Below, in pieces: positions 16,177 through 30,473 of a stretch of 52,214 bases of DNA (positions within the stretch are counted from its first letter, which is position 1; every line of letters starts with the position of its first letter). The DNA comes from a virus (taxonomy: Duplodnaviria > Caudoviricetes), in the IMG/VR virus record IMGVR_UViG_3300025645_000104, positions 1-52,214 of that record. The stretch is one strand, 5' to 3'. Made by a program: the position numbers and the translations under genes. A model generated the notes under the pieces. That model saw nothing but the letters and a program-made list of their open reading frames with translations. It ran no database searches and was not told where the DNA came from.

Positions 16177-16809
16177 ATGTATAAGAACCATGCAGTAAAG
16201 TGCCAAGCGTATGCACAACGAAACGCTGACAACTTTGCAGACGTAGTAATGATGGTGTCACTTAGCATACAGCAGAACTGGCTAGGAGTAGGCGATCAGT
16301 TGCAAGATGTAAGACTGAACAAAGAGAACAGCAAGTTTCTGTGGGGTATGAAAGCGACAGCGTACAAATATATTATGACGCACAAGCATAAGATATACGC
16401 AATGATGAAAGCTGTGATGTGCAGTAATCATAATGACGAAGACAAAGCTAAGAGTCTGATGAAAGTATTCTTGCGTATCGAAGGGCTTGGATTAGTAAAG
16501 GCAGGGTTTGTGTGTCAACTTACCTGTGGTCTTGTAGGTTGTATGGATGTACATAACATCAAGGCATATAAGATTGATGAGAAGATGCTGACCTATAACA
16601 AGAAGTTAAGGACAGAGAAAGGTATCAAAGCAAATGAGAAGAAGATAGAGAACTATATTAAACTGTGCCACGACTACGGAACAGAAGAACTTTGGAACGC
16701 ATGGTGTGAATCGTTAGCTCTTAAATCAGATAAGTGGGTTGACGGATTCCATGTGTCTGAGGTACACTATACTTATCTGACAAACAATAACAGGAGGGCA
16801 GTATGTTAG
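16177..16809 (+). CDS. HhH-GPD-like DNA glycosylase
   Basis: HhH motif FLRIEGLGLVKAGF followed by CMDVH (candidate catalytic Asp). Confidence 0.55.
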   Translation: MYKNHAVKCQAYAQRNADNFADVVMMVSLSIQQNWLGVGDQLQDVRLNKENSKFLWGMKATAYKYIMTHKHKIYAMMKAVMCSNHNDEDKAKSLMKVFLRIEGLGLVKAGFVCQLTCGLVGCMDVHNIKAYKIDEKMLTYNKKLRTEKGIKANEKKIENYIKLCHDYGTEELWNAWCESLALKSDKWVDGFHVSEVHYTYLTNNNRRAVC

Positions 16810-17138
16810 AACCGTTAGCAAAAACGATAGTACAAGAGGTAGTAGATGAAGGTGGATTTTATTCTCTTGAAGTAGATGGTGAAGAGTATCAAGAGATAAC
16901 CAACGATACATCTTTAATATGTAACCAGAAAGACGGAGATAAATATATAGGTGTTGATAACCTAGATATATGTTACATAAATATATACGATAGCAAGAAA
17001 GAGTTTGATGGTTGGATACTTTGGATAGGAGTAAACGATCATGTAGAAAGAATAGGTGATCATACTTTAATGAGTAGTGACTACATTAATATAGATAAAC
17101 TAATGGATAAATGGGAAAAGGAGTATATAAGATTATGA
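16803..17138 (+). CDS. Acidic hypothetical protein
   Basis: ORF with GGAGG RBS. Confidence 0.7.
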   Translation: MLEPLAKTIVQEVVDEGGFYSLEVDGEEYQEITNDTSLICNQKDGDKYIGVDNLDICYINIYDSKKEFDGWILWIGVNDHVERIGDHTLMSSDYINIDKLMDKWEKEYIRL

Positions 17139-17305
17139 AATTTAGAGATGCGATAGCGATAGTAGCACCAAGTAAACTGGCATGGTATGATGCTCAAGAT
17201 AAAGATACTAAGTTTCAAGATGAGTGTAGTGCCTTGTTAGATAACAAAGAACAACTAGTCATTGATGACTACTTTAAAGAGGAGAACAAAAATAATGATG
17301 AATGA
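17135..17305 (+). CDS. Hypothetical protein
   Basis: ATGA-coupled start, AGGAG RBS. Confidence 0.65.
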   Translation: MKFRDAIAIVAPSKLAWYDAQDKDTKFQDECSALLDNKEQLVIDDYFKEENKNNDE

Positions 17306-17549
17306 TTTATTAGAAGAAATGCCTAGAGCAGGATCACCTGAAGACAGAGGTAGTGCTGATCGTTACTATTATAGAAGGTACAGTCCTCATTACTATGAGT
17401 ATCCTTTTGGTAAAGGTGAGTCACCACGTATTGAAGAAGATCGTATGACACCTGAACAGATTGCCTTGTATAAGAAAGGTTGGGATAACGAAGACGAACG
17501 TAAAGAATTTGACTATGAAGAATTTATAATAGAGGATGAGGAAGAATGA
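17295..17549 (+). CDS. Hypothetical protein (GSPEDRGSADRYY motif)
   Basis: GAGGAG RBS upstream of MMNDL. Confidence 0.7.
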   Translation: MMNDLLEEMPRAGSPEDRGSADRYYYRRYSPHYYEYPFGKGESPRIEEDRMTPEQIALYKKGWDNEDERKEFDYEEFIIEDEEE

Positions 17550-17767
17550 CAATGAGAAAACTACCTTTTAATTGTAGAGTAGGTTATAAACCTCAAGAAG
17601 TAGCCAATAGATTTACTGGTGAAAAGGTAACGATACCTTCTGATGCTGTCGCAGTTTACGATACCATCATGGGTGCTGAACTTTTTAGAGATTACGACAC
17701 AGTTCGTAAAGGTTTAGATTGGTTCATTAAACATGAGCCAGATGCATATATGATATTATTAGACTAA
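17546..17767 (+). CDS. Hypothetical protein
   Basis: ATGA overlap and GAGG RBS. Confidence 0.75.
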   Translation: MTMRKLPFNCRVGYKPQEVANRFTGEKVTIPSDAVAVYDTIMGAELFRDYDTVRKGLDWFIKHEPDAYMILLD

Positions 17768-17777
17768 GGAGAAAGGT

Positions 17778-17909
17778 ATGAATGAAGAAGAGATATACTT
17801 AAACACCTTGATAGCAGAGGCTGAGTTACAAATGACAATAGGGTATACTGCATTTGGAATGTGTGTTATGCTTGTTGTTTCTTTATGGATATATTGGAGA
17901 GTGAGATGA
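17778..17909 (+). CDS. 43-aa single-TM peptide
   Basis: MNEEEIYL...IGYTAFGMCVMLVVSLWIYWRVR; AGGAG RBS. Confidence 0.65.
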   Translation: MNEEEIYLNTLIAEAELQMTIGYTAFGMCVMLVVSLWIYWRVR

Positions 17910-18208
17910 ACAAGAGTGATTTAATGAAAGTGTTCTTTACTTTCACAGATGATAACGCTGAGTTAATGTTTAACTATGAAGATGTGAACGGAAAAGAAAC
18001 AACAGATAGAAAAGTTAAACCTTTCAAGATAGAGTATCAAGAAGATGATGATGAAGTATTAATTACAGGACTATGTGCTGTTGCTACTATGCCTTCTGGA
18101 ATTATTGATTGGCAACAAAGAAAGTTTTATTTAAATAATATGTCTTGCATTAGAGTGTATAAAGAGATACGCTATGCAGAGATGTTAAATTCAAAAGCTT
18201 GGAGTTAA
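17906..18208 (+). CDS. Stand-alone WYL-like domain protein
   Basis: FNYEDVNGKETTDRKVKPFKI...LITGLC...QRKFYLNNM follows the WYL pattern. Confidence 0.55.
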   Translation: MNKSDLMKVFFTFTDDNAELMFNYEDVNGKETTDRKVKPFKIEYQEDDDEVLITGLCAVATMPSGIIDWQQRKFYLNNMSCIRVYKEIRYAEMLNSKAWS

Positions 18209-18210
18209 GT

Positions 18211-18759
18211 ATGAACATATTTTATTTTTATGATAGCCCTGTTAAATCAGCAGAGGCACAACCTGATAAGATGTTAGTGAAGATGCCATTGGAGACAGCG
18301 CAGATGTTATGTACTGCACACAGAGAACTAGATGGTGACGAGTATGCAGACAAGGTAGGTTTGTACAAACGAGCATACTGGAATCATCCGTGTACAATAT
18401 GGGCTAGGGAATGTAATGAAAATTACTCGTGGTTATATGCTCATTTTCTAGCACTAGGAATGGAATACACTTACCGATATGGTAAGGAACATGCAAGTAT
18501 TATTAAGTTAGCTAAACCTTTAATGCAGTTCCCTAAAAATATAAAGAGTGGTCAGATGACAACAGTTGCACAAGCTATGCCAGATCAATACAAGAATGAC
18601 GATCCTATCAAAGCATATCGTGACTACTGTATCAATGAGAAGCACTATGCTAAGTGGGAGAAAGGTAGAGACAAACCTAAGTGGTGGGTGAAGGTGAAGG
18701 AAGAGCTTGATGAAGCGCAAGCAATAGATGATTACTACATGTCAATAGCGGAGGTGTGA
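18211..18759 (+). CDS. Pyrimidine-dimer DNA glycosylase / endonuclease V-like protein
   Basis: MNIF...DKMLVKMPLETAQMLCTAH...NHPCTIWA...AMPDQYK..DPIKAYRDY family signature. Confidence 0.75.
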   Translation: MNIFYFYDSPVKSAEAQPDKMLVKMPLETAQMLCTAHRELDGDEYADKVGLYKRAYWNHPCTIWARECNENYSWLYAHFLALGMEYTYRYGKEHASIIKLAKPLMQFPKNIKSGQMTTVAQAMPDQYKNDDPIKAYRDYCINEKHYAKWEKGRDKPKWWVKVKEELDEAQAIDDYYMSIAEV

Positions 18760-18935
18760 TGAAGAAACCTAAAGGCAAGACAGTCATGGTTAGGTATCCA
18801 GAAGATGATACAACTTGGCACAAAGCTACAGTTGGTACGCTACTGAGCATACAGTTTACTGCTGACTATGAGGTAGATGGTAAAGAAACACATGGGTTTT
18901 TCTTTTATAAAGATTATAAATTAACTTGGAGATAG
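18759..18935 (+). CDS. 58-aa hypothetical protein
   Basis: TGATG coupling, GGAGGT RBS; MKKPKGKTVMVRYPEDDTTWHKATV... Confidence 0.7.
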   Translation: MKKPKGKTVMVRYPEDDTTWHKATVGTLLSIQFTADYEVDGKETHGFFFYKDYKLTWR

Positions 18936-18937
18936 AT

Positions 18938-19114
18938 ATGAACTTAAAGATAGGACAAGAGGTAGATGGTAGAACCATAGATCGCATAACTATGGATAGA
19001 GATACAAGAGACATGACTGTTTGGTTTGATAAAGACTATCCTGATGATGGAGTTATAGTAGTCAGACACAACGAGTCTATTGATAAAGTTTTAAATCATA
19101 AATGGGAGAAGTAG
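18938..19114 (+). CDS. Hypothetical protein
   Basis: ATG after GGAG; fills the array. Confidence 0.65.
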   Translation: MNLKIGQEVDGRTIDRITMDRDTRDMTVWFDKDYPDDGVIVVRHNESIDKVLNHKWEK

Positions 19115-19116
19115 AG

Positions 19117-19326
19117 ATGCAAGACAGATACGAAATACTATTGCAAATTGAACAGGTATTGAGTAAGCTAGAACGAACTGTACCTGCAGGGTTACGTAAA
19201 GAGATAGGTATTTCAAAAGCGTTAGACAATGTAGGTAAGTTAATAGATGGTGAAACTGAAAAGAAACATGAAGAGTTAGAGAAAGAATACGCAATGATGC
19301 AACAAGCAATAGAAGAGATGGAGTGA
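19117..19326 (+). CDS. Helical hypothetical protein
   Basis: ORF track frame; start at MQDRY. Confidence 0.65.
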   Translation: MQDRYEILLQIEQVLSKLERTVPAGLRKEIGISKALDNVGKLIDGETEKKHEELEKEYAMMQQAIEEME

Positions 19327-19329
19327 GAG

Positions 19330-19476
19330 ATGAATAAAAAATTAAAAGATATAACAACAGAGATTAGTAAGTTAAATATAAAAGAACAAAGACAGATAGC
19401 TATTATTATTCTAGCATCTGTACTGAGTGATGAATCTTTAAAAGAAGTATTAGACATAGTAGATTACGAGGGTTAA
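19330..19476 (+). CDS. 48-aa hypothetical protein
   Basis: MNKKLKDITTEISKL...; GGAG RBS. Confidence 0.6.
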   Translation: MNKKLKDITTEISKLNIKEQRQIAIIILASVLSDESLKEVLDIVDYEG

Positions 19477-19526
19477 TTGTAGTTACCTATATAAAACTAC
19501 AAACATAAGAAGAAGGAGATATAAAG

Positions 19527-19706
19527 ATGGTTAAGATATTTGACGGTACAGCAAACAAGAAGTTCTATCACGTTAATGTGTTAGGCTTTAAGTTCAGAGT
19601 TGCGACAAACACTAGAACTTTTAGTAAGTTTGGCTCTTACCTAACAGGTAGAGGTCGAGTGTTTAACTTTGGTAGACAGTACTTGTGCTTTATACCTAAG
19701 TCGTAA
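19527..19706 (+). CDS. 59-aa basic hypothetical protein
   Basis: AAGGAG RBS; MVKIFDGTANKKFYHVNVLGFKFRV... Confidence 0.75.
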   Translation: MVKIFDGTANKKFYHVNVLGFKFRVATNTRTFSKFGSYLTGRGRVFNFGRQYLCFIPKS

Positions 19707-19709
19707 GAC

Positions 19710-19860
19710 AAAAGTCTCCCTAACAATTTAATGCATGGGTTGTTAGATGACTATAAAAGCGCACATGCTAGTGTTGACAGGCACTATAAAAACCGATAGT
19801 TATGTTGCTGTTGGAGGAGTTGGTAGTCATCTTCGGAACTAAAAAACTACCATATTTTTT
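19710..19860 (+). ncRNA. Candidate structured intergenic RNA
   Basis: Stems CTAACAA/TTGTTAG, TAGTG/CACTA and TGGTAGT/ACTACCA, then a T tract. Confidence 0.4.
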
Positions 19861-19881
19861 AACAACAAAGAGGAAAGTAAA

Positions 19882-20301
19882 ATGGCTACACAGATAAGAA
19901 AGTTTGAACAAGATGCAATCGTTGATACTATTGCTGATAAGATAGAGACAGAGTTAAAGAGTAAGAGACAAGAGATGATTAAAGATGATAGAGACTACGA
20001 GTCTATGTTATCAGATTCAAATCAGATGAAAGCTTTGAGTAAAGATATTGATGATCTAACAGAGAAAAGAAACTTACTGCATGGTAGTATCTATGAACGT
20101 GTCCAAGAGTGGAACGCTAGTAACAATTCTTATGCACTAGATATAAATAGGTATCAAGGAGTCTTAAGTTTAAATCCAAAGCTTAACTATTATCATTTAA
20201 GAGAAAAGATAGGTAACAAGGTTGCGATAGCACTCTTACCTAAAGATGCAAAAGAGAACATGGATACTATTATATCCAACATAACTAAGGAGTTTGTATA
20301 A
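19882..20301 (+). CDS. Coiled-coil hypothetical protein
   Basis: ORF with GAGG RBS. Confidence 0.8.
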   Translation: MATQIRKFEQDAIVDTIADKIETELKSKRQEMIKDDRDYESMLSDSNQMKALSKDIDDLTEKRNLLHGSIYERVQEWNASNNSYALDINRYQGVLSLNPKLNYYHLREKIGNKVAIALLPKDAKENMDTIISNITKEFV

Positions 20302-20582
20302 TGCAAATAAAATTTGATTACTATGACATGCAAGAAGCTATTCAGTTATTAGTTAAGGAAAAGTTTGACATGGATATAGATTTAGAAGATCTATCACCAC
20401 ACGACTATCCTAGTATTGAATATCGAGAACGTGTGTTGGTATATAAAAAACATAAGAACGGAAAAGAAGTTAAAGATAAACACGGCTGTCGTGAAGTAGA
20501 TTGGGATAACACTGAATACGTTACTAAGCATATAGAGTTTGATGATAGTTCCGACATAACTTTTTATGTAGGTAAGGACTAA
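20301..20582 (+). CDS. Hypothetical protein
   Basis: TAATG coupling, AAGGAG RBS. Confidence 0.75.
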   Translation: MQIKFDYYDMQEAIQLLVKEKFDMDIDLEDLSPHDYPSIEYRERVLVYKKHKNGKEVKDKHGCREVDWDNTEYVTKHIEFDDSSDITFYVGKD

Positions 20583-20584
20583 CA

Positions 20585-20758
20585 ATGAGTATAGATATTA
20601 AAGAGTTAGACGTAGTACTTAAAGACTTTGATGAACAGTTAGAGAGTGAAAATTTTGGACTGTACATTGATGCTTATGTACCACCTAAAGAAGAAGCTAA
20701 CACTAAAGGAGATGAATATGTTTATAATAATTTAGATGATTTAGATTTTAATAGTTGA
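20585..20758 (+). CDS. 57-aa acidic hypothetical protein
   Basis: MSIDIKELDVVLKDFDEQ...; AAGGA RBS. Confidence 0.65.
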   Translation: MSIDIKELDVVLKDFDEQLESENFGLYIDAYVPPKEEANTKGDEYVYNNLDDLDFNS

Positions 20759-20783
20759 ATTTAAAATTTAGATATGGTATAAT
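20755..20783 (+). promoter_or_regulatory. Sigma70 promoter with extended -10
   Basis: TTGAAT-17 bp-TATAAT with TG at -15/-14. Confidence 0.7.
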
Positions 20784-20814
20784 CTTATAAGTATTATAAG
20801 GAAAGAGAAAACAA

Positions 20815-21045
20815 ATGATTAATAATAATGTTATAGACTTTAAAAACTTTAAAGCAGAGAAAGATGATAAAGAATATATTGTTAGTCTTTATGAAACTAA
20901 ACAATATAATTTTGTAGTTAGAGCTAACAGCGGAGAAGAAGCTGAGAATATTATAAGTAAAAGATACGAGTCAGGTGAGGTGATGCTTGAAGATAACTTA
21001 TCTGTCTTTACATTTGAAACAGTAGCAACAGAAAATAACAGTTGA
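20815..21045 (+). CDS. Small protein, DpnD/PcfM-like
   Basis: YIVSLYET...VVRANSGEEAE...YESGEV pattern. Confidence 0.55.
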   Translation: MINNNVIDFKNFKAEKDDKEYIVSLYETKQYNFVVRANSGEEAENIISKRYESGEVMLEDNLSVFTFETVATENNS

Positions 21046-21070
21046 CATAGGAAGAGGACTAGTGTATAAT
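21042..21070 (+). promoter_or_regulatory. Sigma70 promoter of the replication module
   Basis: TTGACA-17 bp-TATAAT, perfect consensus. Confidence 0.9.
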
Positions 21071-21076
21071 ATACAA

Positions 21077-21196
21077 TTCAAATCACGAACAAGATATGTA
21101 GCCCTCATGTATCACCTTCCTTTTTATCTTGTTTGTTCGCTGATTGAGCGAGTAAGTTTCTGGTCTTACGATAATATAAAACCAGATCTAATTTTT
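21077..21196 (+). ncRNA. Candidate sRNA / leader with anti-RBS loop
   Basis: Stem GAACAAGATA/TATCTTGTTT encloses GCCCTCATGTATCACCTTCCTTTT; second stem TCTGGT/ACCAGA then a T tract. Confidence 0.6.
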
Positions 21197-21222
21197 ATAG
21201 CAACGAAAGAGGTAAAATAAAA

Positions 21223-21639
21223 ATGATGTACGCAACAGGAAAAGCAATGTGGGCTAACGTGTCTGTACCTAACACACGTTTTGAGCCACATAAATACATG
21301 GTTACTATCTTGACTGACGAAGACACAGCATCTGACTTAGAAGCAGCAGGTCTTAAACAGTCTACCGATAGAGCAGGCAATGCTAAGTATGATGAGCCTG
21401 CGTTCATGTTCAGTAAGACTGCGATACGCAAGAAAGATGGTGTCGCCAACAAAGCTCCAAAGCTAATTGATGCTGATGGTAATCCTTTAGATTGTTTGAT
21501 TGGTAATGGTTCTAACATTACTGTAAAGGTTAGACCATACAGCACAGCTTATGGTACGTTTGGAGAGTTAGTCGCTGTTAAGGTTAACGAGCTTGTTGAC
21601 TATGAAGATGGCGGTGACTTGGATAACGAGGAGTTTTAA
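21223..21639 (+). CDS. ssb: Single-stranded DNA-binding protein (T7 gp2.5-like)
   Basis: GKAMWA, LIGNGS.ITV, acidic tail ending in F; upstream of primase. Confidence 0.85.
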   Translation: MMYATGKAMWANVSVPNTRFEPHKYMVTILTDEDTASDLEAAGLKQSTDRAGNAKYDEPAFMFSKTAIRKKDGVANKAPKLIDADGNPLDCLIGNGSNITVKVRPYSTAYGTFGELVAVKVNELVDYEDGGDLDNEEF

Positions 21640-21640
21640 G

Positions 21641-21910
21641 ATGGTTGATGAACAGAAACCTTTTATTACTATTGATGATGTGCAGATTTCAGTAGAGGAT
21701 TTACCTGAAGAAGCACAAGGTATCTTTGGTAGGATACAAAGATTGAATCAGAAGAAAGCAACTCTTGCGTTAGACATGGAGGAGATAGACGCAAGCCTTA
21801 ACTTTTTTTCAGGTAGGATAATTAGTATTGTTAATGAAGATGCTAAACCAACAGGAGAAGCTGATGAAGAATTGGTAGAAGGAGAAGACGCAGTAAAATC
21901 TAACAATTAA
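21641..21910 (+). CDS. Hypothetical protein
   Basis: GAGGAG RBS; MVDEQKPFITIDD... Confidence 0.75.
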   Translation: MVDEQKPFITIDDVQISVEDLPEEAQGIFGRIQRLNQKKATLALDMEEIDASLNFFSGRIISIVNEDAKPTGEADEELVEGEDAVKSNN

Positions 21911-21997
21911 ACTTAACAAGAGAGGCAGTACCATTCAAGAGAACATAAGAGATAAGATGGTAACTTATCCGCCTCTTAATTTTAAAAGGAGCAAAGC

Positions 21998-23683
21998 ATG
22001 AGGGCAGAGTTTGACGAAAAAGAATGGGAGTTGGTACACCAACCTTGTCCTTTGTGTGACAGCAGTGATGCTGTTGGTATCAATAAAGACAGATCAGCAA
22101 AATGTTTTAGCTGTGATGAGTTTATGCCTAACTATGATGATGCAAGCAAAGGAAAAGATATGGAAGTAAATAAAATTAAACCACTTGTTCAGCAACAACA
22201 ACAAGTAAATGATATAGCAGGTACTTATTCTGCGTTGACAGATAGAAAGATAAAGTTAGAGACTGCAAAAAAATATGGTGTGAAAGCACAACACGATTTA
22301 CAAGGCAGAGTAACTAAGCATTTCTATCCTTACTACAACGGACATGAGCTATCAGCAACCAAGTGTCGTAACGTAAATGATAAAGGTTTCTTTCTACAAG
22401 GAACGTATAGTGACACAGGTTTATTCGGACAGCAGTTATTTAAAAGCGGTAAGTATATAACGATTACCGAAGGCGAATGTGACGCAATGGCAGCTTACGA
22501 ATTACTAGGCAGTAAGTGGGCTGTAGTTTCTATTAAGCGCGGTGCGGCAGGTGCAGTACGAGATATAAAAGAAAGCCTTGAGTTCTTTGATGACTTTGAA
22601 AACATTATCATTGCATTTGATAATGACAAAGCAGGTAAAGAAGCAAGCACTAAAGTAGCTAGATTGTTTAAGCCTAGCAAGGCTCGTATTATGACGTTGC
22701 CTACAGGGTGTAAAGATCCTAACGATATGCTACGGCAGAACAAACACAAGCAGTTTACTGAAGCTTGGTGGTCTGCTAAAACGTACACTCCATCTGGAGT
22801 TATCAATGTCTCTGAACAACGTGAGAAGTTTCACAACAGAGAGAAGAAAGAGAGCGTACCTTACCCATACGAAGGTCTTAACAAGAAGCTGTATGGTATG
22901 AGACAAGGTGAGCTTGTTACTCTTACAGGTGGTACAGGTCTTGGTAAGTCTAGTGTTACGAGAGAGATAGAACATTGGCTAATTAACCAGACTAAAGATA
23001 ACGTAGGTGTCATTGCACTTGAAGAAGATTGGCGCAGAACTATTGATGGTATCTTATCTATCGAAGCTAACGCTAGGTTATATATAGATCAGGTACGAGA
23101 AAGATATTCTAAAGAAGAATTAGATAAGCTCTTTGATATTCTATATGATGGACAGAATAAGAATAGAGTATGGGTACATGCTCATTTTGGAGCTAACGAG
23201 CTAGACGAAATCTTTTCTAAGATAAGGTTTATGATCATAGGTTGTGGCTGTAAATGGGTAGTAGTAGATCACTTGCACATGCTTGTCAGCGCATCTACTG
23301 AAGGAGATGAAAGACGTACCATTGATTCTATTATGACTAAGCTTAGATCTATAGTAGAAGAAACAGGTGCAGGTCTTATTCTTGTATCACACTTGCGCAG
23401 AATTGATGGTAACAAAGGACATGAGAACGGTATCGAAGTAAACCTATCTCACCTTAGAGGTAGTCAAAGTATTGCACAGCTTAGTGATTGTGTATTGGCT
23501 CTTGAACGTAACCAACAGTCAGACGATCATCAAGAGTCACAGACAACTAAGGTTCGTGTATTAAAGTCTAGGTACACAGGTGATGTTGGTATGGCTTGTC
23601 ATTTATTATATGATAACGAAACAGGTAGACTTAAAGAAATATCTAACGAAGATTTAGAAGTAGAAAATAACGAAGGATTTTAA
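21998..23683 (+). CDS. DNA primase-helicase (T7 gp4-like)
   Basis: Zn ribbon CPLC...CFSC, TOPRIM ITEGECDA and FDND, helicase GTGLGKS, VVDHL, LRGS. Confidence 0.95.
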   Translation: MRAEFDEKEWELVHQPCPLCDSSDAVGINKDRSAKCFSCDEFMPNYDDASKGKDMEVNKIKPLVQQQQQVNDIAGTYSALTDRKIKLETAKKYGVKAQHDLQGRVTKHFYPYYNGHELSATKCRNVNDKGFFLQGTYSDTGLFGQQLFKSGKYITITEGECDAMAAYELLGSKWAVVSIKRGAAGAVRDIKESLEFFDDFENIIIAFDNDKAGKEASTKVARLFKPSKARIMTLPTGCKDPNDMLRQNKHKQFTEAWWSAKTYTPSGVINVSEQREKFHNREKKESVPYPYEGLNKKLYGMRQGELVTLTGGTGLGKSSVTREIEHWLINQTKDNVGVIALEEDWRRTIDGILSIEANARLYIDQVRERYSKEELDKLFDILYDGQNKNRVWVHAHFGANELDEIFSKIRFMIIGCGCKWVVVDHLHMLVSASTEGDERRTIDSIMTKLRSIVEETGAGLILVSHLRRIDGNKGHENGIEVNLSHLRGSQSIAQLSDCVLALERNQQSDDHQESQTTKVRVLKSRYTGDVGMACHLLYDNETGRLKEISNEDLEVENNEGF

Positions 23684-23684
23684 T

Positions 23685-25415
23685 ATGGATTTAGTATTTG
23701 ATATAGAAACAGACGATCTTAAAGCAACAAAGATACATTGTATAGTGTGTCAAGATCCTAACTCAGGAGAGATCTTTAAGTTTAAACCTAATCAGATTGA
23801 TGAGGGTGTTAAATTTTTAAGTACCGCTGATAGATTAATAGGACACAATATTGTTGGCTTTGATATTCCTGTTGTTAAAAAACTAACAGGTACTGATCTG
23901 TCTCATATCGAAGCATTAGATACGTTAGTGTTGTCACGACTGCTTAATCCTATCCGAGCAGGTGGTCATAGTCTTGAAGCTTGGGGATACAAATTAGAAT
24001 ATCCTAAGATTTCTTTTGAAGAGTACAAAGATTATTCTGCAGAAATGTTGAAGTATTGTGTCAGAGATGTGCAGTTAAATACTTTAGTATTCAAGAGCTT
24101 ACGTTTAGAATCTAAACAGTTTTCTAAGGAAAGTGTATTGCTAGAACATGGTGTTGCAAAGATAATGAAGGAGCAAGAAGAGAATGGATTTAAGTTTGAT
24201 AGTTACTCTGCTGAGATATTGCTCGCTAATCTGAGAGAAAGAAAACAAAAGATAGAAGATGAAGTACACAATACATTTAAACCTAAATGGGTAGATGATA
24301 AAATAGTTACACCTTATATTAAGAAAGATGGTCAGTTATCCAAACGTGGATTGTCTGATGAAGAGTACGATAACTGTCTGTGGTTTGGTAACACAGATCC
24401 TTTCATGCGTAGAAAGTTAGTTGACTTTAATCTTGGCAGTCGTAAACAGATTGGAGAATACTTGATTGACTTTGGTTGGAAGCCAGAAAGATTTACACCT
24501 ACTGGTCAGCCTATTGTAGATGAAAAAACTTTATCAGAAGTTACACACATACACGAAGCTAGTCTCATTGCAGAGTTTCTTTTGTTACAGAAACGTATAG
24601 CACAGGTTGATTCGTGGGTTAAAGCAGTTGAAGAAGATGGTAGAATACATGGCTTTGTTATACCTAACGGTGCTATCACAGGTCGCATGACACATCGTAG
24701 TCCAAACACAGCGCAGATTCCTAGCTTACGTCAGCCTTATGGCAAGGAGTGTCGTGCATGTTGGACAGTAGACGAAGGTAATGTCTTACTAGGTATTGAT
24801 GCGTCAGGTTTAGAACTAAGAATGTTATCTCACTATATGAAAGACGAGGAGTTTACAAATGAAATACTTAACGGAGACATACATACCGCTAATCAAAAGC
24901 TTGCAGGACTTAAATCAAGAGATCAGGCAAAGACATTCATCTATGCGCTTATGTACGGAGCAGGAGATGAGAAGCTTGGAAGCGTGGTTGGTGGAAATAA
25001 ATCAACTGGTAGAAAGTCTAGACAACTGTTCTTTGATAATAAACCATCATTTAAAACTCTTAGAGATAGAGTTACGAGAGCAGCAGCAAGAGGCTTCGTC
25101 AAAGGATTAGATGGTAGAAAATTATTTATACGCAACGCACACTCAGCTTTAAATACTTTATTACAAGGAGCAGGTGCGATAGTTATGAAGCAAGCACTTG
25201 TTATATTTGACAAGCATTTACGTGAAGCAAACCTAAAGTATAAGTTTGTTGCTAACATCCATGATGAGTGGCAAATGGAAGTACCTAAACAAACAGCAGA
25301 ACTAATAGGTGCAATGGGTGTTCGATCTATTATAGAAGCAGGACAAGTTTTTAATATGAACTGTCCTTTAGATGGTGAATATCAATATGGAGGGAACTGG
25401 AGTGAAACACACTGA
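23685..25415 (+). CDS. polA: Family A DNA polymerase (T7-like, Tyr762 type)
   Basis: Exonuclease FDIET and GHNIVGFD; motif A DASGLELR, motif B RDQAKTFIYALMYG, motif C IHDE. Confidence 0.95.
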   Translation: MDLVFDIETDDLKATKIHCIVCQDPNSGEIFKFKPNQIDEGVKFLSTADRLIGHNIVGFDIPVVKKLTGTDLSHIEALDTLVLSRLLNPIRAGGHSLEAWGYKLEYPKISFEEYKDYSAEMLKYCVRDVQLNTLVFKSLRLESKQFSKESVLLEHGVAKIMKEQEENGFKFDSYSAEILLANLRERKQKIEDEVHNTFKPKWVDDKIVTPYIKKDGQLSKRGLSDEEYDNCLWFGNTDPFMRRKLVDFNLGSRKQIGEYLIDFGWKPERFTPTGQPIVDEKTLSEVTHIHEASLIAEFLLLQKRIAQVDSWVKAVEEDGRIHGFVIPNGAITGRMTHRSPNTAQIPSLRQPYGKECRACWTVDEGNVLLGIDASGLELRMLSHYMKDEEFTNEILNGDIHTANQKLAGLKSRDQAKTFIYALMYGAGDEKLGSVVGGNKSTGRKSRQLFFDNKPSFKTLRDRVTRAAARGFVKGLDGRKLFIRNAHSALNTLLQGAGAIVMKQALVIFDKHLREANLKYKFVANIHDEWQMEVPKQTAELIGAMGVRSIIEAGQVFNMNCPLDGEYQYGGNWSETH

Positions 25416-25896
25416 TATAACTAAACATGATATACAACAGGCAGAGATACTTGCTAAAGAAATGGGAGAATTAAAAAATTCTATAACAAAAGGACAGGGA
25501 AATATACATGGATTTTTAGGAGAAATAATTGTAGCTAAATTTTTAGATATAAAAATATCTAACACTTATGATTACGATATGATATTTAAGGATATAAAAA
25601 TAGATGTTAAAACTAAACGAGTAACTACTCCTCCTAGAGATTATTATGAGTGTTCAGTTGCTGCTCTTAATACTAAGCAACGCTGTAATATATATGTATT
25701 TACACGCATTTTAAAAGACAGGACTCAGGGATGGATATTAGGATATATAAATAAAGAAGACTATTTTAAAAAAGCTACCTTCCTTAAAAAAGGAGAAGTA
25801 GATCCTTCTAATAATTGGAAAGTTTCAACAGACTGTTATAACCTTCCAATAAAAGAATTAAATAACATAGAGGAGCTGTTAAGTGAAACACACTAA
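25402..25896 (+). CDS. PD-(D/E)XK nuclease-like protein
   Basis: GFLGE...YDYD...IDVKT; GTG start after GGAGG. Confidence 0.6.
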   Translation: MKHTDITKHDIQQAEILAKEMGELKNSITKGQGNIHGFLGEIIVAKFLDIKISNTYDYDMIFKDIKIDVKTKRVTTPPRDYYECSVAALNTKQRCNIYVFTRILKDRTQGWILGYINKEDYFKKATFLKKGEVDPSNNWKVSTDCYNLPIKELNNIEELLSETH

Positions 25897-26416
25897 TAAA
25901 GATTGTATTAAATGCGGAGTAAAATTAACAGACGATAATTGGTATATCGCTGCAAAAAAAATAAAAATGTATCAATGTTCTTCGTGTTATCAAAAAATCG
26001 CACTTAAGTTTTCAAAAAAAACAAATCCAGAAAGAATGTATGTTAACGGTAAGTATGTACCAAAAGACCATCCTTTATATAAAGCAGGCAGATATAAAAC
26101 TTTTGAAGGTGCAGCCTTCTCATCTTTATCTGGCTATGAAAAATCTAACGAAGGTTATGTATATGTTATAACTAATCCTTGTTGGAAAGGTTGGGTTAAA
26201 GTTGGTATGGCTATTGATGCAGAGGACAGATGTAAACAGTATCAAACCTCTAGTCCTTTTAGAGACTACGCATTAAGGTTTAAGAAATACTTTGACGATA
26301 GACGAAGTGCTGAACAACAAGCACATAAGAAAATAAAAAATATTTGTAAAGATAACAATGGAGAATGGTTTAAAGTTTCTATATCAGAAGCTAAAGAAAT
26401 CATACAGTCAATATGA
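25883..26416 (+). CDS. GIY-YIG (T5orf172-like) nuclease with N-terminal Zn finger
   Basis: CxxC...CxxC; GYVYVI...VKVG...R...QTSSP...GEWF. Confidence 0.8.
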   Translation: MKHTNKDCIKCGVKLTDDNWYIAAKKIKMYQCSSCYQKIALKFSKKTNPERMYVNGKYVPKDHPLYKAGRYKTFEGAAFSSLSGYEKSNEGYVYVITNPCWKGWVKVGMAIDAEDRCKQYQTSSPFRDYALRFKKYFDDRRSAEQQAHKKIKNICKDNNGEWFKVSISEAKEIIQSI

Positions 26417-27273
26417 AAAAACTAGATACGTTAGTAGAAGATATATACGACAAGCTATCTGTACTATCAGATGGTGAGTCACTAAACATAGACGATAAAA
26501 CTATTGATGCTTTTGGTGAGTCAATGAAAGAAGTTCTTTCTCATTGGGCTAACCCTAGACCAAGAGATAGTGGTACGTTACGCATGTCTAACATTGGTAA
26601 ACCTATGCGTCAGCTATGGTATGATATGCGTTCAGAAAGTAAGACAACTGAAAGAATTAAACCCTCTGTCTTTATTAAATTTCTATACGGACATCTACTT
26701 GAAGAGGTACTTCTGTTGTTAGTTAAGATAGCAGGACACAAAGTTACCGATGAACAAAAAGAAGTTTCTGTATCTGGTATTAAAGGACACATGGACTGCG
26801 TTATTGATGGTGAAGTAGTGGATATTAAGACAGCCTCTAGTTTCGCGTTTAAGAAGTTTTATAATAAAACCCTAGCCGAAGATGATATATTCGGTTATCT
26901 CCCTCAGTTGGCAGGCTACGAGGCTGCTATGGGTACAAACAAGGGTGGTTTCTTAGCCATGAACAAAGAGTCAGGTGAAATAGCATTATATAGACCTGAT
27001 TCTTTCGATAAACCTGACATAAAAAACAAAATAAAAACAGTTAAAAAACTTATAAAGGTAGACACACCACCTGATTTATGTTATAATCCTGTACCAGATG
27101 GAGCAGCAGGTAACATGAAGATAGGTAAAGGATGTACTTGGTGTAGACATAAGTTTGAATGTCATGCAGATGCTAACGAAGGCAAAGGATTACGAGTGTT
27201 CAAATATGCAGATAGATATTCTTATTTAACTAGAGTAGTAAAAGAACCTAGAGTATTGGAAGTTACTAAATGA
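26413..27273 (+). CDS. PD-(D/E)XK exonuclease (Cas4/RecB-like)
   Basis: GHMD...VDIKT, QLAGY, CTWCRHKFEC. Confidence 0.8.
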   Translation: MKKLDTLVEDIYDKLSVLSDGESLNIDDKTIDAFGESMKEVLSHWANPRPRDSGTLRMSNIGKPMRQLWYDMRSESKTTERIKPSVFIKFLYGHLLEEVLLLLVKIAGHKVTDEQKEVSVSGIKGHMDCVIDGEVVDIKTASSFAFKKFYNKTLAEDDIFGYLPQLAGYEAAMGTNKGGFLAMNKESGEIALYRPDSFDKPDIKNKIKTVKKLIKVDTPPDLCYNPVPDGAAGNMKIGKGCTWCRHKFECHADANEGKGLRVFKYADRYSYLTRVVKEPRVLEVTK

Positions 27274-27557
27274 ACGGAAGAAAAGCAAAAGCACTAAGAA
27301 AACGTAGTAAAGAACTATTAGTAGAATGGTTACGTTCTGTTGTTCCTGAAGGAGAAGATCTTACTAAGATACATACAGGAAACATACACGAGTTTATGCC
27401 TGCTGAAACACACATCTATGCTAATCGTAAGTTTTTATTAAGTGCTTATTCTTTACGTTGGTTTTATAAAAAATTAAAACGTAACCCTGATGCAACTTTA
27501 TACGAGTTACTAAACGAACAGAATGTAAAATCTAGTACTGGTCATTGGGTTATCTAA
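27270..27557 (+). CDS. Hypothetical protein
   Basis: ATGA-coupled ORF. Confidence 0.75.
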   Translation: MNGRKAKALRKRSKELLVEWLRSVVPEGEDLTKIHTGNIHEFMPAETHIYANRKFLLSAYSLRWFYKKLKRNPDATLYELLNEQNVKSSTGHWVI

Positions 27558-27970
27558 TGGCTAAAAGAAAACCTAGAAAAGTTAGACCAAGAGAAAAGAA
27601 CGTACCAAAAGGATACGATAGTAAGTGGGAGTACGAGTTGCATAAAGGTATATTAAATAACTGGAGTCATCACACTAACAAAGTACCTTATGTAGTAGAG
27701 CATACTTACGAACCTGACTTTGAAAAAGATAAAATTATTATAGAAGCAAAGGGTAGGTTCTGGGATCACGCTGAGTACAGTAAGTATTTGTGGATTAGAA
27801 AGTCATTACCACATACAATGGAACTTGTGTTTATATTTCAAAAGCCATACGCTCCAATGCCTGCTGCTAAGAAAAGAAAAGACGGAACAAAACGAACACA
27901 TGCTGAATGGGCTGAAGCAAATAATTTTAAATGGTATACTGAAGATACCTTACCGAAGGAGTGGAAGTAA
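27557..27970 (+). CDS. Endonuclease I / Holliday junction resolvase (T7 gp3-like)
   Basis: YDSKWE...YEPDF...IEAKGRF...WAEANNFKW. Confidence 0.85.
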   Translation: MAKRKPRKVRPREKNVPKGYDSKWEYELHKGILNNWSHHTNKVPYVVEHTYEPDFEKDKIIIEAKGRFWDHAEYSKYLWIRKSLPHTMELVFIFQKPYAPMPAAKKRKDGTKRTHAEWAEANNFKWYTEDTLPKEWK

Positions 27971-28263
27971 TGATTGATTATAAATTCAACGAACACAATA
28001 CAATAGAACAAATAAAAAGATACATAGATAAAACATACGAACAACACTATGCTTCTGGCAAACAGCAAGCAACAGAGATGGTTATAGATGCAGGACACGG
28101 AGATGGTTTCTGCATGGGTAACATTATAAAATATGCTATAAGGTATGGTAAGAAACCTGACTCTGTTACTGGAGAATATAAAAATCAAGGTGACTTGTTA
28201 AAGATTATACACTACGCTATTATAGCTCTACATTTATGGGTAGAGGATAAAACACATGATTAG
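27970..28263 (+). CDS. DUF3310 / T7 gp1.7-like protein (putative nucleotide kinase)
   Basis: HY...GFCMGNIIKYAIRYGKK...DLLKIIHY. Confidence 0.75.
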   Translation: MIDYKFNEHNTIEQIKRYIDKTYEQHYASGKQQATEMVIDAGHGDGFCMGNIIKYAIRYGKKPDSVTGEYKNQGDLLKIIHYAIIALHLWVEDKTHD

Positions 28264-28540
28264 CAGATTACTTTACATGATACCTTTTATAGGTATGTCT
28301 GTTGGCTGTTATTTTTTATTTAGTAATGACATCGCAGTAGCAAGTGTGTTAGCTTTGTTAGGAATATTACAAGCTAGTATTTGTTTAGGTTTTTTATTTT
28401 TACAAATGCTATTAGCAGGAATTGATGGAACACTAGAAGTAGAGGTACAACTATGGGATGCACTTATGCCTGTTGTTTTTCTTATGATAAGCTTTACTTC
28501 TTTTTTATATTTAACACTAAACATTTTACAAGAGACATAA
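28256..28540 (+). CDS. Small membrane protein (about 3 TM)
   Basis: Three hydrophobic segments, GAGG RBS. Confidence 0.7.
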   Translation: MISRLLYMIPFIGMSVGCYFLFSNDIAVASVLALLGILQASICLGFLFLQMLLAGIDGTLEVEVQLWDALMPVVFLMISFTSFLYLTLNILQET

Positions 28541-28541
28541 C

Positions 28542-30473
28542 ATGACACAAACAAACAACGCAGAGTTACCCACAAACTATCAACAATTTATACACCTTAG
28601 TAGATATGCAAGGTGGAACGAAGAACATCAACGTAGAGAAACATGGAGCGAAACTGTTTCTAGATATTTTGATTTCTTTGAAAATCATTTAATGAAGAAG
28701 CATAACTTAGACATCATTACATGGAACGGAACTAGAAAATATTTAGAAGAAGCTGTACTTAACTTAGATGTTATGCCAAGTATGCGAGCATTGATGTCAG
28801 CAGGTAAAGCATTAGAGCAAGATAACGTTGCAGGTTTTAACTGTAGCTATGTAGCTGTCGATAACGTCAGAGCCTTTGATGAAACGCTATACATACTTAT
28901 GTGTGGCACAGGTGTTGGCTTTAGTGTAGAGCGTCAGTATGTTAATCAACTTCCTGATCTACCTGAAGAACTATTCAATACAGATACAGTTATTAAGGTA
29001 GCTGATTCTAAGATTGGGTGGGCAAAATCCTACAAAGAACTACTCTCGTTACTATACGCAGGGCAGATTCCCACATGGGATGTGTCTAACATCAGACCTT
29101 ATGGTGCTAGACTTAAAACATTTGGTGGTCGTGCTAGTGGTCCTGCTCCACTTGAAGAGTTATTTAATTTTACTATCAACATATTCCGTGATGCTATTGC
29201 AAAAGGACAGCGTAAGCTTGTGTCCATAGACTGCCATGATTTGATGTGTAAGGTCGCAGAAGTCGTAGTCGTAGGGGGAGTAAGGCGAAGTGCTTTAATC
29301 TCTCTCAGCAACCTCTCAGACAATCGTATGCGCAATGCCAAGTCAGGTGCTTGGTGGGAAGACAATCAGCAGAGAGCGTTATCTAATAACTCAGTAGCAT
29401 ACACAGATGCTGCAGAAACTGGTGCGTTTATGCGTGAGTGGTTGTCTTTGTATGAGTCTAAAAGTGGTGAACGTGGTATGTTTAATCGTCAAGCTGCAGA
29501 AAAACAGGCAGCTAAGAACGGTAGACGAGAAGATTATGAACACTTTGGTTGTAATCCTTGTAGTGAGATTATTCTACGTAACAAACAGTTCTGTAATCTT
29601 ACTGAGGTTGTGGTTAGACCTGAAGATACAACAGCTACTCTTAAAGATAAAGTAGAACTTGCTACCATACTTGGTACGTTTCAAGCTACCTTAACAAACT
29701 TTAGATACTTGACAAGTAAATGGAAACAAAACACAGAAGAAGAATCGTTACTTGGAGTATCACTTACAGGTATCATGGACAATAACGATATGGTAACTGG
29801 AAATAATATAGATTTAGAATATCTTAAAAACTATTCAGTATCTGTTAATAAGTTATGGGCTAAGAAGCTAGGTATTCCCCACTCCGCAGCAATAACCTGT
29901 GTGAAACCTAGTGGAACAGTTAGTCAACTGGTCGATAGTGCTTCAGGTATTCACACTAGACATAGCCCATACTACCTACGTACTGTCAGAGCAGATAAGA
30001 AAGATCCGTTAGCTAAACTAATGGTAGACGCAGGTGTATATCACGAAGATGATCTTACTAAGCCAGAGCATACCTATGTGTTTTACTTCCCCATGAAGAG
30101 TCCTAAAGGCTCTCTCACAAGGAAGGACTTCACAGCTATACAACACTTAGACCTTTGGAAAGAGTATCAGGATAACTGGTGTGAGCATAAACCATCTGTT
30201 ACTATCTCAGTTAAAGAGAACGAGTGGTTAGACGTAGGTGCTTGGGTATATAAAAACTTTGATGATGTATCAGGTATCTCGTTCTTACCATACTCAGATC
30301 ACTCATACAAGCAAGCTCCTTATCAAGAGATTACTTATAACGAGTATCGTAAGTGGTTAAAGAAAACTACAGACGTAGTAGATTGGTCTAAGATAACAGA
30401 GTACGAAACAGAAGATAACACTGAGAACACTAAAGAGCTTGCGTGTAGCGCAGGTACTTGTGAGATTATTTAA
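28542..30473 (+). CDS. nrdJ: Class II (adenosylcobalamin-dependent) ribonucleotide reductase
   Basis: FNC, LMCGTGVGFS, NPCSEI, FCNL, TCVKPSGT, WCEHKPS, C-terminal CSAGTC; no beta-subunit gene nearby. Confidence 0.9.
   Translation: MTQTNNAELPTNYQQFIHLSRYARWNEEHQRRETWSETVSRYFDFFENHLMKKHNLDIITWNGTRKYLEEAVLNLDVMPSMRALMSAGKALEQDNVAGFNCSYVAVDNVRAFDETLYILMCGTGVGFSVERQYVNQLPDLPEELFNTDTVIKVADSKIGWAKSYKELLSLLYAGQIPTWDVSNIRPYGARLKTFGGRASGPAPLEELFNFTINIFRDAIAKGQRKLVSIDCHDLMCKVAEVVVVGGVRRSALISLSNLSDNRMRNAKSGAWWEDNQQRALSNNSVAYTDAAETGAFMREWLSLYESKSGERGMFNRQAAEKQAAKNGRREDYEHFGCNPCSEIILRNKQFCNLTEVVVRPEDTTATLKDKVELATILGTFQATLTNFRYLTSKWKQNTEEESLLGVSLTGIMDNNDMVTGNNIDLEYLKNYSVSVNKLWAKKLGIPHSAAITCVKPSGTVSQLVDSASGIHTRHSPYYLRTVRADKKDPLAKLMVDAGVYHEDDLTKPEHTYVFYFPMKSPKGSLTRKDFTAIQHLDLWKEYQDNWCEHKPSVTISVKENEWLDVGAWVYKNFDDVSGISFLPYSDHSYKQAPYQEITYNEYRKWLKKTTDVVDWSKITEYETEDNTENTKELACSAGTCEII

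Follow-up and report, generated by a model that had tools for sequence, protein, structure and literature searches.

What does a folded RNA do that lies immediately behind a consensus promoter, at the head of the replication genes of a marine podophage, and does its long pyrimidine-rich loop act on the start of the primase-helicase gene further downstream? The question was raised by one viral contig (IMG/VR record IMGVR_UViG_3300025645_000104), the whole 52,214-nt stretch of which was analysed and is referred to here as the window. The original prediction for this locus was a promoter-driven hairpin RNA whose loop is antisense to the ribosome binding site (RBS) and start codon of the primase-helicase, and which would set primase-helicase translation relative to that of the single-stranded DNA-binding protein (SSB). 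The podophages that carry this RNA are common in marine metagenomes, and there is, to our knowledge, hardly any information on how phages of this kind control the timing and the relative amounts of their replication proteins. The features of the locus are summarized in Table 1.

Table 1. Features of the leader RNA, its neighbouring genes and its proposed targets (window coordinates).
Feature	Position	Strand	Details
Early coupling cassette GAGGAGUGAUGUAUG, three copies	15700-16179 (15700-14, 15859-73, 16165-79)	+	Possible secondary targets of the near-clade loop
Sigma-70 consensus promoter	21042-21070	+	TTGACA 21042-21047, spacer 17 nt, TATAAT 21065-21070; match 12/12
P1 hairpin	21085-21136	+	5' arm 21085-21096, loop 21097-21124 (28 nt), 3' arm 21125-21136
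Loop segment A, UAGCCCUCAUG	21099-21109	+	Complementary to primase start
Loop segment B, UAUCACCUUCCUUUU	21110-21124	+	CCUUCC in most clades; two subgroups have CUUCC or UUUCC
P2 hairpin, UCGC(U)/(A)GCGA	21137-21151	+	100% paired; both sides changed in 2/4 pairs
H-type pseudoknot	21152-21185	+	P3 GUAAG 21152-56/CUUAC 21165-69; P4 CUGG 21160-63/CCAG 21182-85; A-rich loop 3 21170-81
A/U-rich tail AUCUAAUUUUUAUAG..., then SD of SSB gene	21186-21222	+	SD GAGGU (21209-13)
Gp2.5-like ssDNA-binding protein, 138 aa	21223-21639	+	phrog_112, E 6.9e-08; acidic tail ends ...DNEEF
89-aa ORF (orf89), no assigned function	21641-21910	+	
Two-tier hairpin then AAUUUU, between orf89 and primase	21920-21977	+	Lacking in some near-clade relatives
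Primase-helicase start region, proposed loop target	21984-22005	+	SD AAAAGGAG 21984-91; AUG 21998-22000; CAUGAGGGC 21997-22005
Primase-helicase (Toprim + DnaB_C), 561 aa	21998-23683	+	

The perfect sigma70 promoter claimed upstream of the hairpin was confirmed: no second 12/12 match was present within the scanned region (13000-31000), and relatives retained both hexamers around a diverged spacer. The 5' end of the transcript probably lies near 21077. The folded domain described below was located 10-20 nt downstream of a consensus promoter in every case, and was present as a single copy per genome in five of five genomes.

The stem proposed originally (21087-21096/21125-21134) is present inside a longer P1 helix of 11-12 bp (21085/6-21096 with 21125-21135/6), the loop of which was single-stranded in the MFE and centroid folds alike. 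The description of a structured plus-strand RNA stood, but not that of a simple hairpin, since P1 is the first helix of a domain made up of P1, P2 and an H-type pseudoknot (21085-21185). All the pairs of the pseudoknot (5/5 in P3 and 4/4 in P4) were intact in 58 of 58 sequences, which included five P3 and three P4 variants; P4 was left out of the search model. Changes on both sides were seen across clades in 11 of 11 P1 pairs, and in two loci (L121 and L157) the P1 stem sequences were wholly different with pairing still kept. Among 56 distinct sequences, 94.0% of the cells were paired (30.7-43.1% with slid partners), both-sided changes were present in 17 of 25 pairs, and the covariation score of 0.565 was matched by none of 500 shuffles. 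Judged from sequence comparison, covariation supports all four helices (P1, P2, P3 and P4). One-sided stem changes were each compatible with G-U or A-U pairing and double changes were numerous; a plus-strand RNA structure is the reading of the hairpin that these patterns support. The fold energy of the whole leader was unremarkable (z = -0.86 and -0.78 in two runs); the evidence for structure is covariation, not energy.

The domain was found in at least 100 viral contigs, from two clades of marine podophages that are distant relatives of pelagiphage HTVC104P. It forms the SSB leader in the near clade only. In the distant clade, where the search model matched 29 of 40 loci (the 11 loci without a match have at most about 1,030 nt upstream of SSB), the domain precedes SSB by 500-800 nt, and SSB has a separate promoter there; other RNA blocks, a terminator-like hairpin (GGUAGUU..AACUACC or AGGCA..UGCCU, each with a U-run), a gene of 80-138 aa and the SSB promoter are located in between, and the domain stands at the head of a mosaic of further conserved non-coding blocks, some of them again with ACCUUCC. 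Because of this arrangement, the predicted link to SSB does not hold as a general rule. The sequence after the domain differs between the clades, and in one locus (L121) a 61-aa ORF follows it directly.

The domain was absent from the cultured relatives HTVC104P, HTVC115P, HTVC200P and CHOED (best E-values 0.19 and 0.56); the closest cultured relatives (primase identity about 45%) infect SAR11. A blastn search with 20700-22100 against a phage collection gave no match. The loop 18-mer had eight scattered matches to bacterial and archaeal genomes, in unrelated taxa and against roughly 17 predicted by chance; they give no sign of a host or prophage copy. A lone viral loop match outside the clade, inside a coding region, and two high-GC matches to the pseudoknot pattern were attributed to chance, as were most of the matches listed for a gapped loop pattern; when 52 of the new loci from this pattern (L169-L220) were screened with the model, the best E-value was 0.93, in one locus. 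No tRNA or tmRNA genes were found, nor was an RNA polymerase gene found in these phages, and phage-encoded ribosomal protein S21 was rejected as a loop partner because PF01165 had no match in the genome. Literature searches gave no description of this leader RNA; the domain may be among the candidate viral RNA structures, more than ten thousand in number, catalogued in PMC10690425.

The loop core GCCCUC was present in every element, GCCCUCA in all except the L157 type (GCCCUCU), and the segment UAGCCCUC(A) was close to invariant. In the near clade 22 nt of the loop were invariant, and the AUCACC of segment B was restricted to this clade; the loop middle was between 4 and 11 nt long. Its near-clade form, GUAUCACC, showed no variation opposite a variable spacer at the primase start, so primase pairing alone is insufficient to explain the conservation of the loop. 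A likeness of the loop to the 16S 3' tail, which we take to be AUCACCUCCUU, had also been pointed out; it holds, with one extra U, for the near clade alone, and it is not conserved, the other clades having CUAACCUUCC, AACACUUCC or AAAUUUCC at that position.

Every sequence statement made about the complementarity between the loop and the primase start proved correct. In the window, GCCCUCAUG (21101-21109) is the exact complement of CAUGAGGGC at the start codon, UUCCUUUU (21117-21124) pairs with the Shine-Dalgarno (SD) region AAAAGGAG with one G-U, and the duplex between loop and primase start had an energy of -25.4 kcal/mol (RNAduplex). The loop was predicted to be open, as originally supposed, with opening costs of +1.15 and +1.07 kcal/mol, and the net interaction energy with both partners opened was -20.0 kcal/mol in the window and -12.1 kcal/mol in a distant-clade locus (L161). 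When both strands of the whole window were scanned, no non-self site paired better with the loop than the primase start, which led by a narrow margin (-25.4 vs. -24.9 kcal/mol for a site in a coding region) and was clearly first of the 74 start regions (runner-up -18.7 kcal/mol). Among composition-preserving shuffles of the loop, 15 of 200 and 11 of 300 matched the window energy on at least one start region, and none of 300 did so on the primase start itself. Given these shuffles and the near-equal coding-region site, the match in this one genome is suggestive, not compelling. Masking of the SSB SD in cis was rejected on account of the weak pairing between the loop and the SSB start region (-9.2 kcal/mol). 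The early-gene motif GAGGAGTGATGTATG was present in three exact copies (at 15700, 15859 and 16165); its duplexes with the loop had energies of -14.7 to -15.8 kcal/mol and contained the claimed run of 10 contiguous pairs with two G-U. The early coupling cassette was found in the window and in G001, L040, L043 and L059, and was missing in four of four distant genomes; a near-clade-only loop insertion matches a near-clade-only cassette.

Across the relatives, loop and primase start could be matched up in 56 unique combinations from the two clades, and in every one of them the complement of the loop segment, UGAGGGC, lay at the primase start; the duplex energies were -16.8 to -27.0 kcal/mol, compared with -5.4 to -13.2 kcal/mol for the SSB start of the same loci, which served as a control. 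When all start regions were ranked in five complete or near-complete genomes from the two clades, the primase start was 1st of 80, 1st of 77, 3rd of 75, 2nd of 102 and 1st of 70; 8, 43, 9, 2 and 7 of 300 shuffled loops gave it the same or a better rank, and 0, 1, 0, 2 and 4 of 300 matched the observed energy on it. Shuffles matched the observed energy on some start region in 92-190 of 300 cases in the distant genomes, and a pyrimidine-rich loop can be expected to match some purine-rich start region fairly frequently.

A helix of at least 9 bp was kept by clade-specific flanks: the window type has CAUGAGGGC/GCCCUCAUG, the L020 type UAUGAGGGCAGA/UUUGCCCUCAUG, and the distant clade UGAGGGCUA/UAGCCCUCA together with UAGU/ACUA. 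Within the near clade, the base preceding the AUG varied together with the base on the 5' side of GCCC in the loop, the combinations (loop base first) being U,U (8), A,C (9) and A,U (1), and this clade-level association at the helix end could reflect a single event. The cores of loop and target were both invariant in the relatives, which leaves no compensatory change that could prove the pairing; the flanks agreed in part only: a few changes at the helix ends were uncompensated (three distant-clade starts read GAGGGCUU, CUU variants, with the loop unchanged), and an AUAA/AUAG variation just upstream of the target had no corresponding change in the loop. The paired GAGGG of the distant clade lies 5 nt before an in-frame AUG and resembles the primase SD. 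None of the four outgroup phages without the element had UGAGGGC(UA/AG) at the primase start; HTVC104P has no element, yet its primase start reads AUGAGGGUG. Since a GAGGG-type purine run at the primase start predates the element, the conservation of the target has its own cause (the SD or the N-terminus), and owing to shared ancestry the agreement between the two clades does not represent two independent trials.

A leader-borne anti-RBS RNA that damps primase-helicase translation is a plausible explanation of this locus, though one that falls short of probable. The stretch 21077-21222 would be the 5' domain of the transcript from the consensus promoter, in which the pseudoknot and P2 may act as a compact scaffold or stability module keeping the long pyrimidine-rich P1 loop open. 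The loop would be the antisense determinant: its invariant UAGCCCUCA(UG) would pair with UGAGGGC at the primase-helicase start and, in the near clade, UUCCUUUU would additionally pair with the primase SD. We infer that this pairing takes place in the cell and is repressive, blocking 30S binding and holding primase-helicase translation below that of SSB on an abundant transcript. Read-through transcripts could be controlled in cis; alternatively the leader, whole or as a processed fragment, could work in trans, which would be likelier in the distant clade, because terminator-like hairpins and a separate SSB promoter intervene there. The near-clade insertion AUGUAUCAC may recruit the early coupling cassettes as extra targets. 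A broader reading, which we consider rather unlikely, is that the domain represents a new class of phage riboregulator, with a rigid promoter-proximal scaffold and an evolvable anti-RBS loop controlling a small regulon of the phage's own starts (that of the primase-helicase in every clade, with GAGGGYUA-type and early-cassette starts in addition); targets would be gained by loop insertions such as the near-clade AUGUAUCAC, and the distant-clade domain would head arrays of similar RNA modules.

The primase match could instead be incidental, a pyrimidine-rich loop meeting a purine-rich RBS, and the domain a structured RNA that works in cis or on its own, the conserved bases of its loop being needed for tertiary folding or for recognition of a protein, of RNA polymerase or of a small ligand (as a stabiliser, riboswitch-like aptamer or protein sponge). 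This is possible, if doubtful. The conserved core with covarying stems is an aptamer-like feature and, with the invariant loop bases and the pseudoknot, makes up the usual signature of aptamers and protein-binding RNAs; the near-clade loop invariance exceeds what primase pairing needs, equally good start regions were often found by shuffled loops, and the distant-clade mosaic with its repeated ACCUUCC points the same way. It is weakened by the lack of a G-rich partner for GCCCUC or CCUUCC within the domain, by the range of loop-middle lengths, odd for a binding pocket, by the weak pairing with the SSB start and by the failure to find an expression platform (an alternative terminator or SD-sequestering helix), the sole candidate being a 3-bp ACC/GGU pairing. 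Nor did any known family match: Rfam 15 gave no hits in the entire window at gathering thresholds and none in eight related loci at E up to 0.1, and with the limit relaxed to an E of 10, the region 20950-22100 gave just four weak hits, one to a Thermales-rpoB model and three to eukaryotic snoRNA models, all far under gathering. A translational operator of the T4 gene 32 type, in which SSB would bind the pseudoknot and spread over the A/U-rich tail and its own RBS to autoregulate, is quite improbable. In its favour, the covarying P3 and P4 place a pseudoknot on the 5' side of the leader, as in that operator, about 35 nt of A/U-rich, mostly unpaired RNA lead from it (21152-21185) into the SSB SD and AUG in the near clade, and the next gene encodes an ssDNA-binding protein; moreover, the part of PMC10690425 available to us reports that gp32 autoregulates its translation via a pseudoknot 5' of its own gene and that 12 candidate structured RNAs lie upstream of gp32 genes. 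Against it, the pseudoknot does not adjoin unstructured RNA leading to the SSB RBS in L121, with its intervening 61-aa ORF, or in the 29 distant-clade loci with the element, where RNA blocks, a terminator-like hairpin, a gene and the SSB promoter intervene; the SSB is gp2.5-like (phrog_112), not gp32-like, and the conserved P1 loop would be left without a role.

Action on the transcribing RNA polymerase, as in HK022 put, would carry transcription through terminators into the replication genes; the constant position close behind a promoter, the single copy per genome and the terminator-like hairpins downstream (21920-21977 in the window and the two kinds of the distant clade) would suit it. We regard it as decidedly improbable, as the hairpin between orf89 and primase, possibly an attenuator, is missing in some near-clade relatives, the Rfam scans contained nothing of that kind, and the complementarity to the primase start would go unexplained. 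A signal at the DNA level (a replication origin, primer-RNA start or operator), with the 9-bp inverted repeat 21101-21109/21997-22005 as two sites of one DNA-binding protein, would suit a site that follows a strong promoter and opens the replication module, and the two 9-mers are indeed one duplex sequence in opposite orientations. It is very improbable: stem changes through G-U on the plus strand would be A-C mismatches on the other strand, the covarying pseudoknot points to RNA, and the sites coincide exactly with an RNA loop and an RBS. A small protein-coding gene is scarcely credible, even though the reverse complement of the loop resembles a textbook RBS and ATG. In 41 unique near-clade contexts the minus-strand ORF (21108-20998 in the window, with the SD-like AAGGAAGGUGAU and an ATG as the loop complement) encoded 4 to 47 aa sharing MRA alone, and the plus-strand ORF from the loop AUG 11 to 48 aa, so both were rejected; the distant clade has no ATG at this site, the neighbouring genes are all on the plus strand, and there were no Pfam matches.

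If the loop does act on start regions, as in the anti-RBS reading that we prefer, the domain would provide a natural and compact case of an anti-RBS element carried on a scaffold; were it to bind a protein or ligand instead, it would still be an undescribed structured RNA worth a family model. In either case, a covariation-supported RNA family with a clear, testable target prediction offers a handle on the balance of replication proteins in these phages.

Several known systems share features with this RNA. Like the T4 gene 32 operator, the near-clade leader has an H-type pseudoknot upstream of an SSB gene, with single-stranded A/U-rich RNA from there to the RBS; unlike it, the SSB is gp2.5-like, the distant-clade domain stands apart from SSB, and P1 with its conserved loop is an additional element. 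HK022 put is composed of two stem-loops without a pseudoknot and acts on RNA polymerase, not on an RBS, with no known phage protein needed; it is likewise a folded promoter-proximal RNA in an early phage transcript. Small RNAs such as staphylococcal RsaE and RNAIII are host-encoded, mask Shine-Dalgarno sequences with C/U-rich loop seeds, and often have several UCCC loops and their own terminator. They share with the present RNA an exposed pyrimidine-rich loop complementary to a purine-rich RBS, and differ from it in that here a single long loop is carried on a pseudoknotted scaffold inside a phage leader. In virulent Pseudomonas phages, 29 candidate 5'UTR-derived non-coding RNAs were described in six phages, one of them upstream of the PAK_P3 primase/helicase gene (PMC10914365, in the part available to us), and these are also promoter-proximal, short and conserved within a phage genus. 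They were found by transcript mapping, with no structure or target stated in that part of the report, whereas the present RNA was found by sequence and covariation alone.

The c4 RNA of phages P1 and P7 and the related P4 CI RNA differ from the present case in several respects: the fold here is P1, P2 and a pseudoknot and matched no Rfam family, the phage appears to be lytic with T7-like replication genes, and the predicted target is a replication enzyme, while that of c4 is an antirepressor. In c4, two sites (a' and b') pair with the target by a same-transcript mechanism, which the two-part helix of the near clade resembles. Both c4 and P4 CI are short structured RNAs encoded at the leader end of a transcript that also contains their target on the same strand, and in both the pairing of short loop sequences at the RBS of the downstream gene represses that gene; the present loop, predicted to be exposed, likewise has complementarity to the RBS of a same-strand gene lying downstream. 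In PMC8546580, c4 is described as a trans-acting RNA repressing Ant synthesis.

The feature behind the promoter is real, and larger and better supported than originally predicted. The sequence statements made for 21077-22005 were all correct on re-examination; promoter and hairpin are both present, but the hairpin does not stand alone, and comparative sequence analysis makes it part of a covariation-supported P1-P2-pseudoknot domain, not previously filed. No Rfam family was matched in the window or the related loci scanned. The window is a complete virus record of 52.2 kb (G+C about 35%), with structural genes on the minus strand and an early and replication block (about 13.9-30.7 kb) on the plus strand. 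Its closest cultured phages are HTVC104P-type pelagiphages (about 45% primase identity, gene order shared), and no phage RNA polymerase gene was found among the large proteins scanned.

Features of the window at and around the RNA domain (SSB, ssDNA-binding protein)
Feature	Position	Strand	Remarks
Gene order at locus		+	consensus promoter, 146-nt leader, SSB, 89-aa ORF (orf89), primase-helicase, family-A DNA polymerase
P1-P2-pseudoknot domain	21085-21185	+	
SSB	21223-21639	+	138 aa, gp2.5-like; phrog_112 match
Primase-helicase		+	Toprim and DnaB_C domains
Coupling cassette GAGGAGTGATGTATG	15700-15714, 15859-15873, 16165-16179		three exact copies
Coupling cassette, imperfect copy	15241-15255		3 mismatches
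Identical palindromes CTTTCCTCTGAGGGAAAG	13891-13908, 14635-14652	-	flagged as terminator-like; border the divergent early region
Non-coding stretch	19766-19863		immediately 5' of gene 19882-20301
76-aa ORF	20815-21045		terminates within the promoter's -35 region; weak, below-cutoff resemblance to DpnD/PcfM-like proteins (PF14207, E 2.4e-4)
Two-tier hairpin, then AAUUUU	21920-21977		between orf89 and primase; kept with variations in many near-clade relatives; missing in L020-L023 type, where orf89 extends into the primase SD

The SSB protein search gave 38 viral loci (73-100% identity) and 37 metagenome loci. The 22-mer GCCCTCATGTATCACCTTCCTT was unchanged in all 35 viral loci having enough upstream sequence, and promoter spacers and other loops diverged among the loci keeping it. 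Every predicted pair was retained in the 28 distinct leaders aligned from the window and these loci (the near clade), and wherever only one side of a stem had changed, G-U was exchanged for A-U or G-C, or the reverse, as read on the plus strand, which favours a plus-strand RNA over DNA or the opposite strand.

In locus L121 (SSB 70% identical), recovered via a pattern anchored 3' of the hairpin, the upper P1 stem is wholly different (AAGGAAC/GUUCCUU) with pairing intact, the loop has a 2-nt insertion, and, in the region 238-720, a 61-aa ORF (GTG start) lies between the domain and SSB. An SSB-type start region (AGAGGU..AAAA.UG) occurs twice there, once 5' of each gene. A covariance model built from near-clade and L121 sequences was used to search the clade with 60-63% SSB identity (the distant clade), where the element lies 500-800 nt upstream of SSB; 29 of 40 loci matched (E 1e-7 to 4e-3), the remaining 11 having little stored upstream sequence. 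The alignment held helices P1, P2, P3 and P4 (P3 loop with downstream CCAG), P3 and P4 together making an H-type pseudoknot. P3 (GUAAG/CUUAC, GUAAG/CUUAU, GCUAG/CUAGU, GCGAG/CUCGU or GCAAG/CUUGU) and P4 (CUGG/CCAG, CUAG/CUAG or CCGG/CCGG) were fully paired in 58 of 58 sequences. In the formal count, 94.0% of cells were paired (30.7-43.1% with slid partners) and both sides had changed in 17 of 25 pairs (covariation score 0.565, matched by 0 of 500 shuffles); fitting the alignment to the model biases it toward P1-P3, P4 lies outside the model, and five P4 rows counted as unpaired were displaced by a loop insertion. Two pattern scans recovered it from 105 and 100 viral contigs (at least 100). In five genomes that are complete or nearly so, the domain occurred exactly once per genome, always shortly 3' of a TTGACA...TATAAT-like promoter.

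Non-coding sequence of 60-360 nt follows the domain in the distant clade, with recurring blocks in differing combinations (L161 2307-2642; likewise L124, L125, L127, L136, L155, L157 and others). Several blocks again have ACCUUCC beside a closing stem, and the region, in which no Rfam match was found, ends in a terminator-like hairpin that abuts the SD of the following gene (GAGGGUUA or GAGGGCUA). The stretch 5' of gene 19882-20301 shares 86-90% identity with a portion of the L161 non-coding region (proteins only about 60%); with its TTGACA promoter-like site, GGAGGAG, hairpin GGUAGU..ACUACC and U-run, it may represent another conserved cassette, of leader or attenuator type.

Within the P1 loop, segment A, (G/A/U)UAGCCCUC(A), was found in all 37 distinct distant-clade upstream variants; some near-clade members have it as UUUGCCCUCA. 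For segment B, most variants have ACCUUCC, L157 has CACUUCC and the L350 group AUUUCC, and the middle between the segments varies from 4 to 11 nt. Because segment B and the middle differ in other clades, the 16S-like AUCACC is a near-clade feature, and the likeness to the 16S 3' tail noted originally is not general.

Segment A was complementary to the primase start in every clade, with differing flanks: the window type gives 9 bp, the L020 type 12 bp including two G-U, and most distant members 9 bp plus 4. The near-clade start is AAAAGGAG-N6-AUGAGGGCAGA, the distant one (A/G/U)UGAGGGCU(A/U)AC AUG GAU. The distant-clade primase ORF opens (A/G)UG AGG GCU AAC AUG (L161 3656-3670 and all others of the clade); as no SD precedes the first codon and GAGGG lies 5 nt upstream of the in-frame inner AUG, that AUG is probably the true start, and GAGGG looks like the real SD. 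The window duplex reached -25.4 kcal/mol, top of 74 start regions (runner-up -18.7) and the best non-self site across the window, narrowly ahead of a coding-region site (-24.9). Shuffled loops equalled this energy on some start region in 15/200 and 11/300 trials, and on the primase start itself in 0/300. After the opening cost of both partners, -20.0 kcal/mol remained in the window and -12.1 in L161. All 56 unique loop/start combinations gave -16.8 to -27.0 kcal/mol (SSB-start controls -5.4 to -13.2). Across the five genomes the primase start ranked 1, 1, 3, 2 and 1; shuffled loops gave such ranks in 8, 43, 9, 2 and 7 of 300 trials.

Classical compensatory-change proof is out of reach because loop and primase start do not vary. 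Changes at the helix ends are few: three CUU starts are uncompensated, and the others amount to a single association at clade level (U,U 8; A,C 9; A,U 1). The target also has its own cause for conservation, since the GAGGG run is older than the domain (HTVC104P); the four domain-less outgroups carry AUGAGGGUG, AAGGGGCGACA, UUAGGAGUUACA and AAGAAAGGUAAU there. Pyrimidine-rich loops often match a good purine-rich start region, and for distant genomes, 92-190 of 300 shuffles found at least one start region with an energy as good as that observed.

The near-clade loop middle is invariant, yet the primase spacer facing it varies. This middle matches an early coupling cassette (GAGGAGUGAUGUAUG in the window; close variants of the core GGAGUGAUGUAUG in near-clade relatives), in which the SD is embedded in the two final Glu codons of the preceding gene, a TGA stop comes next, and 3 nt separate it from the following ATG; as a translational-coupling cassette it connects three consecutive early genes. 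Near-clade relatives carry its 13-nt core, GGAGTGATGTATG, exactly or with one mismatch, and 0 of 4 distant-clade genomes do; the cassette is confined to near-clade genomes. The match of the loop middle could explain the invariance, but it is again one coincidence at clade level.

We tentatively read the domain as a leader-borne anti-RBS RNA directed at the primase-helicase start. Its main rival, which we consider somewhat unlikely, is a loop serving folding or protein/ligand binding, with incidental primase complementarity. An SSB operator like that of T4 gene 32 would fit the near clade only and is improbable, and a put-like antiterminator is quite improbable. A DNA-level signal is very improbable given the G-U-compatible stem changes on the plus strand, and a coding function is hardly credible: ORFs openable by the loop AUG or its complement showed no conservation (4-47 and 11-48 aa across 41 contexts).

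Among known systems, the P1 c4 RNA is nearest in logic to the anti-RBS reading; PMC8546580 describes c4 as acting in trans to repress Ant synthesis.
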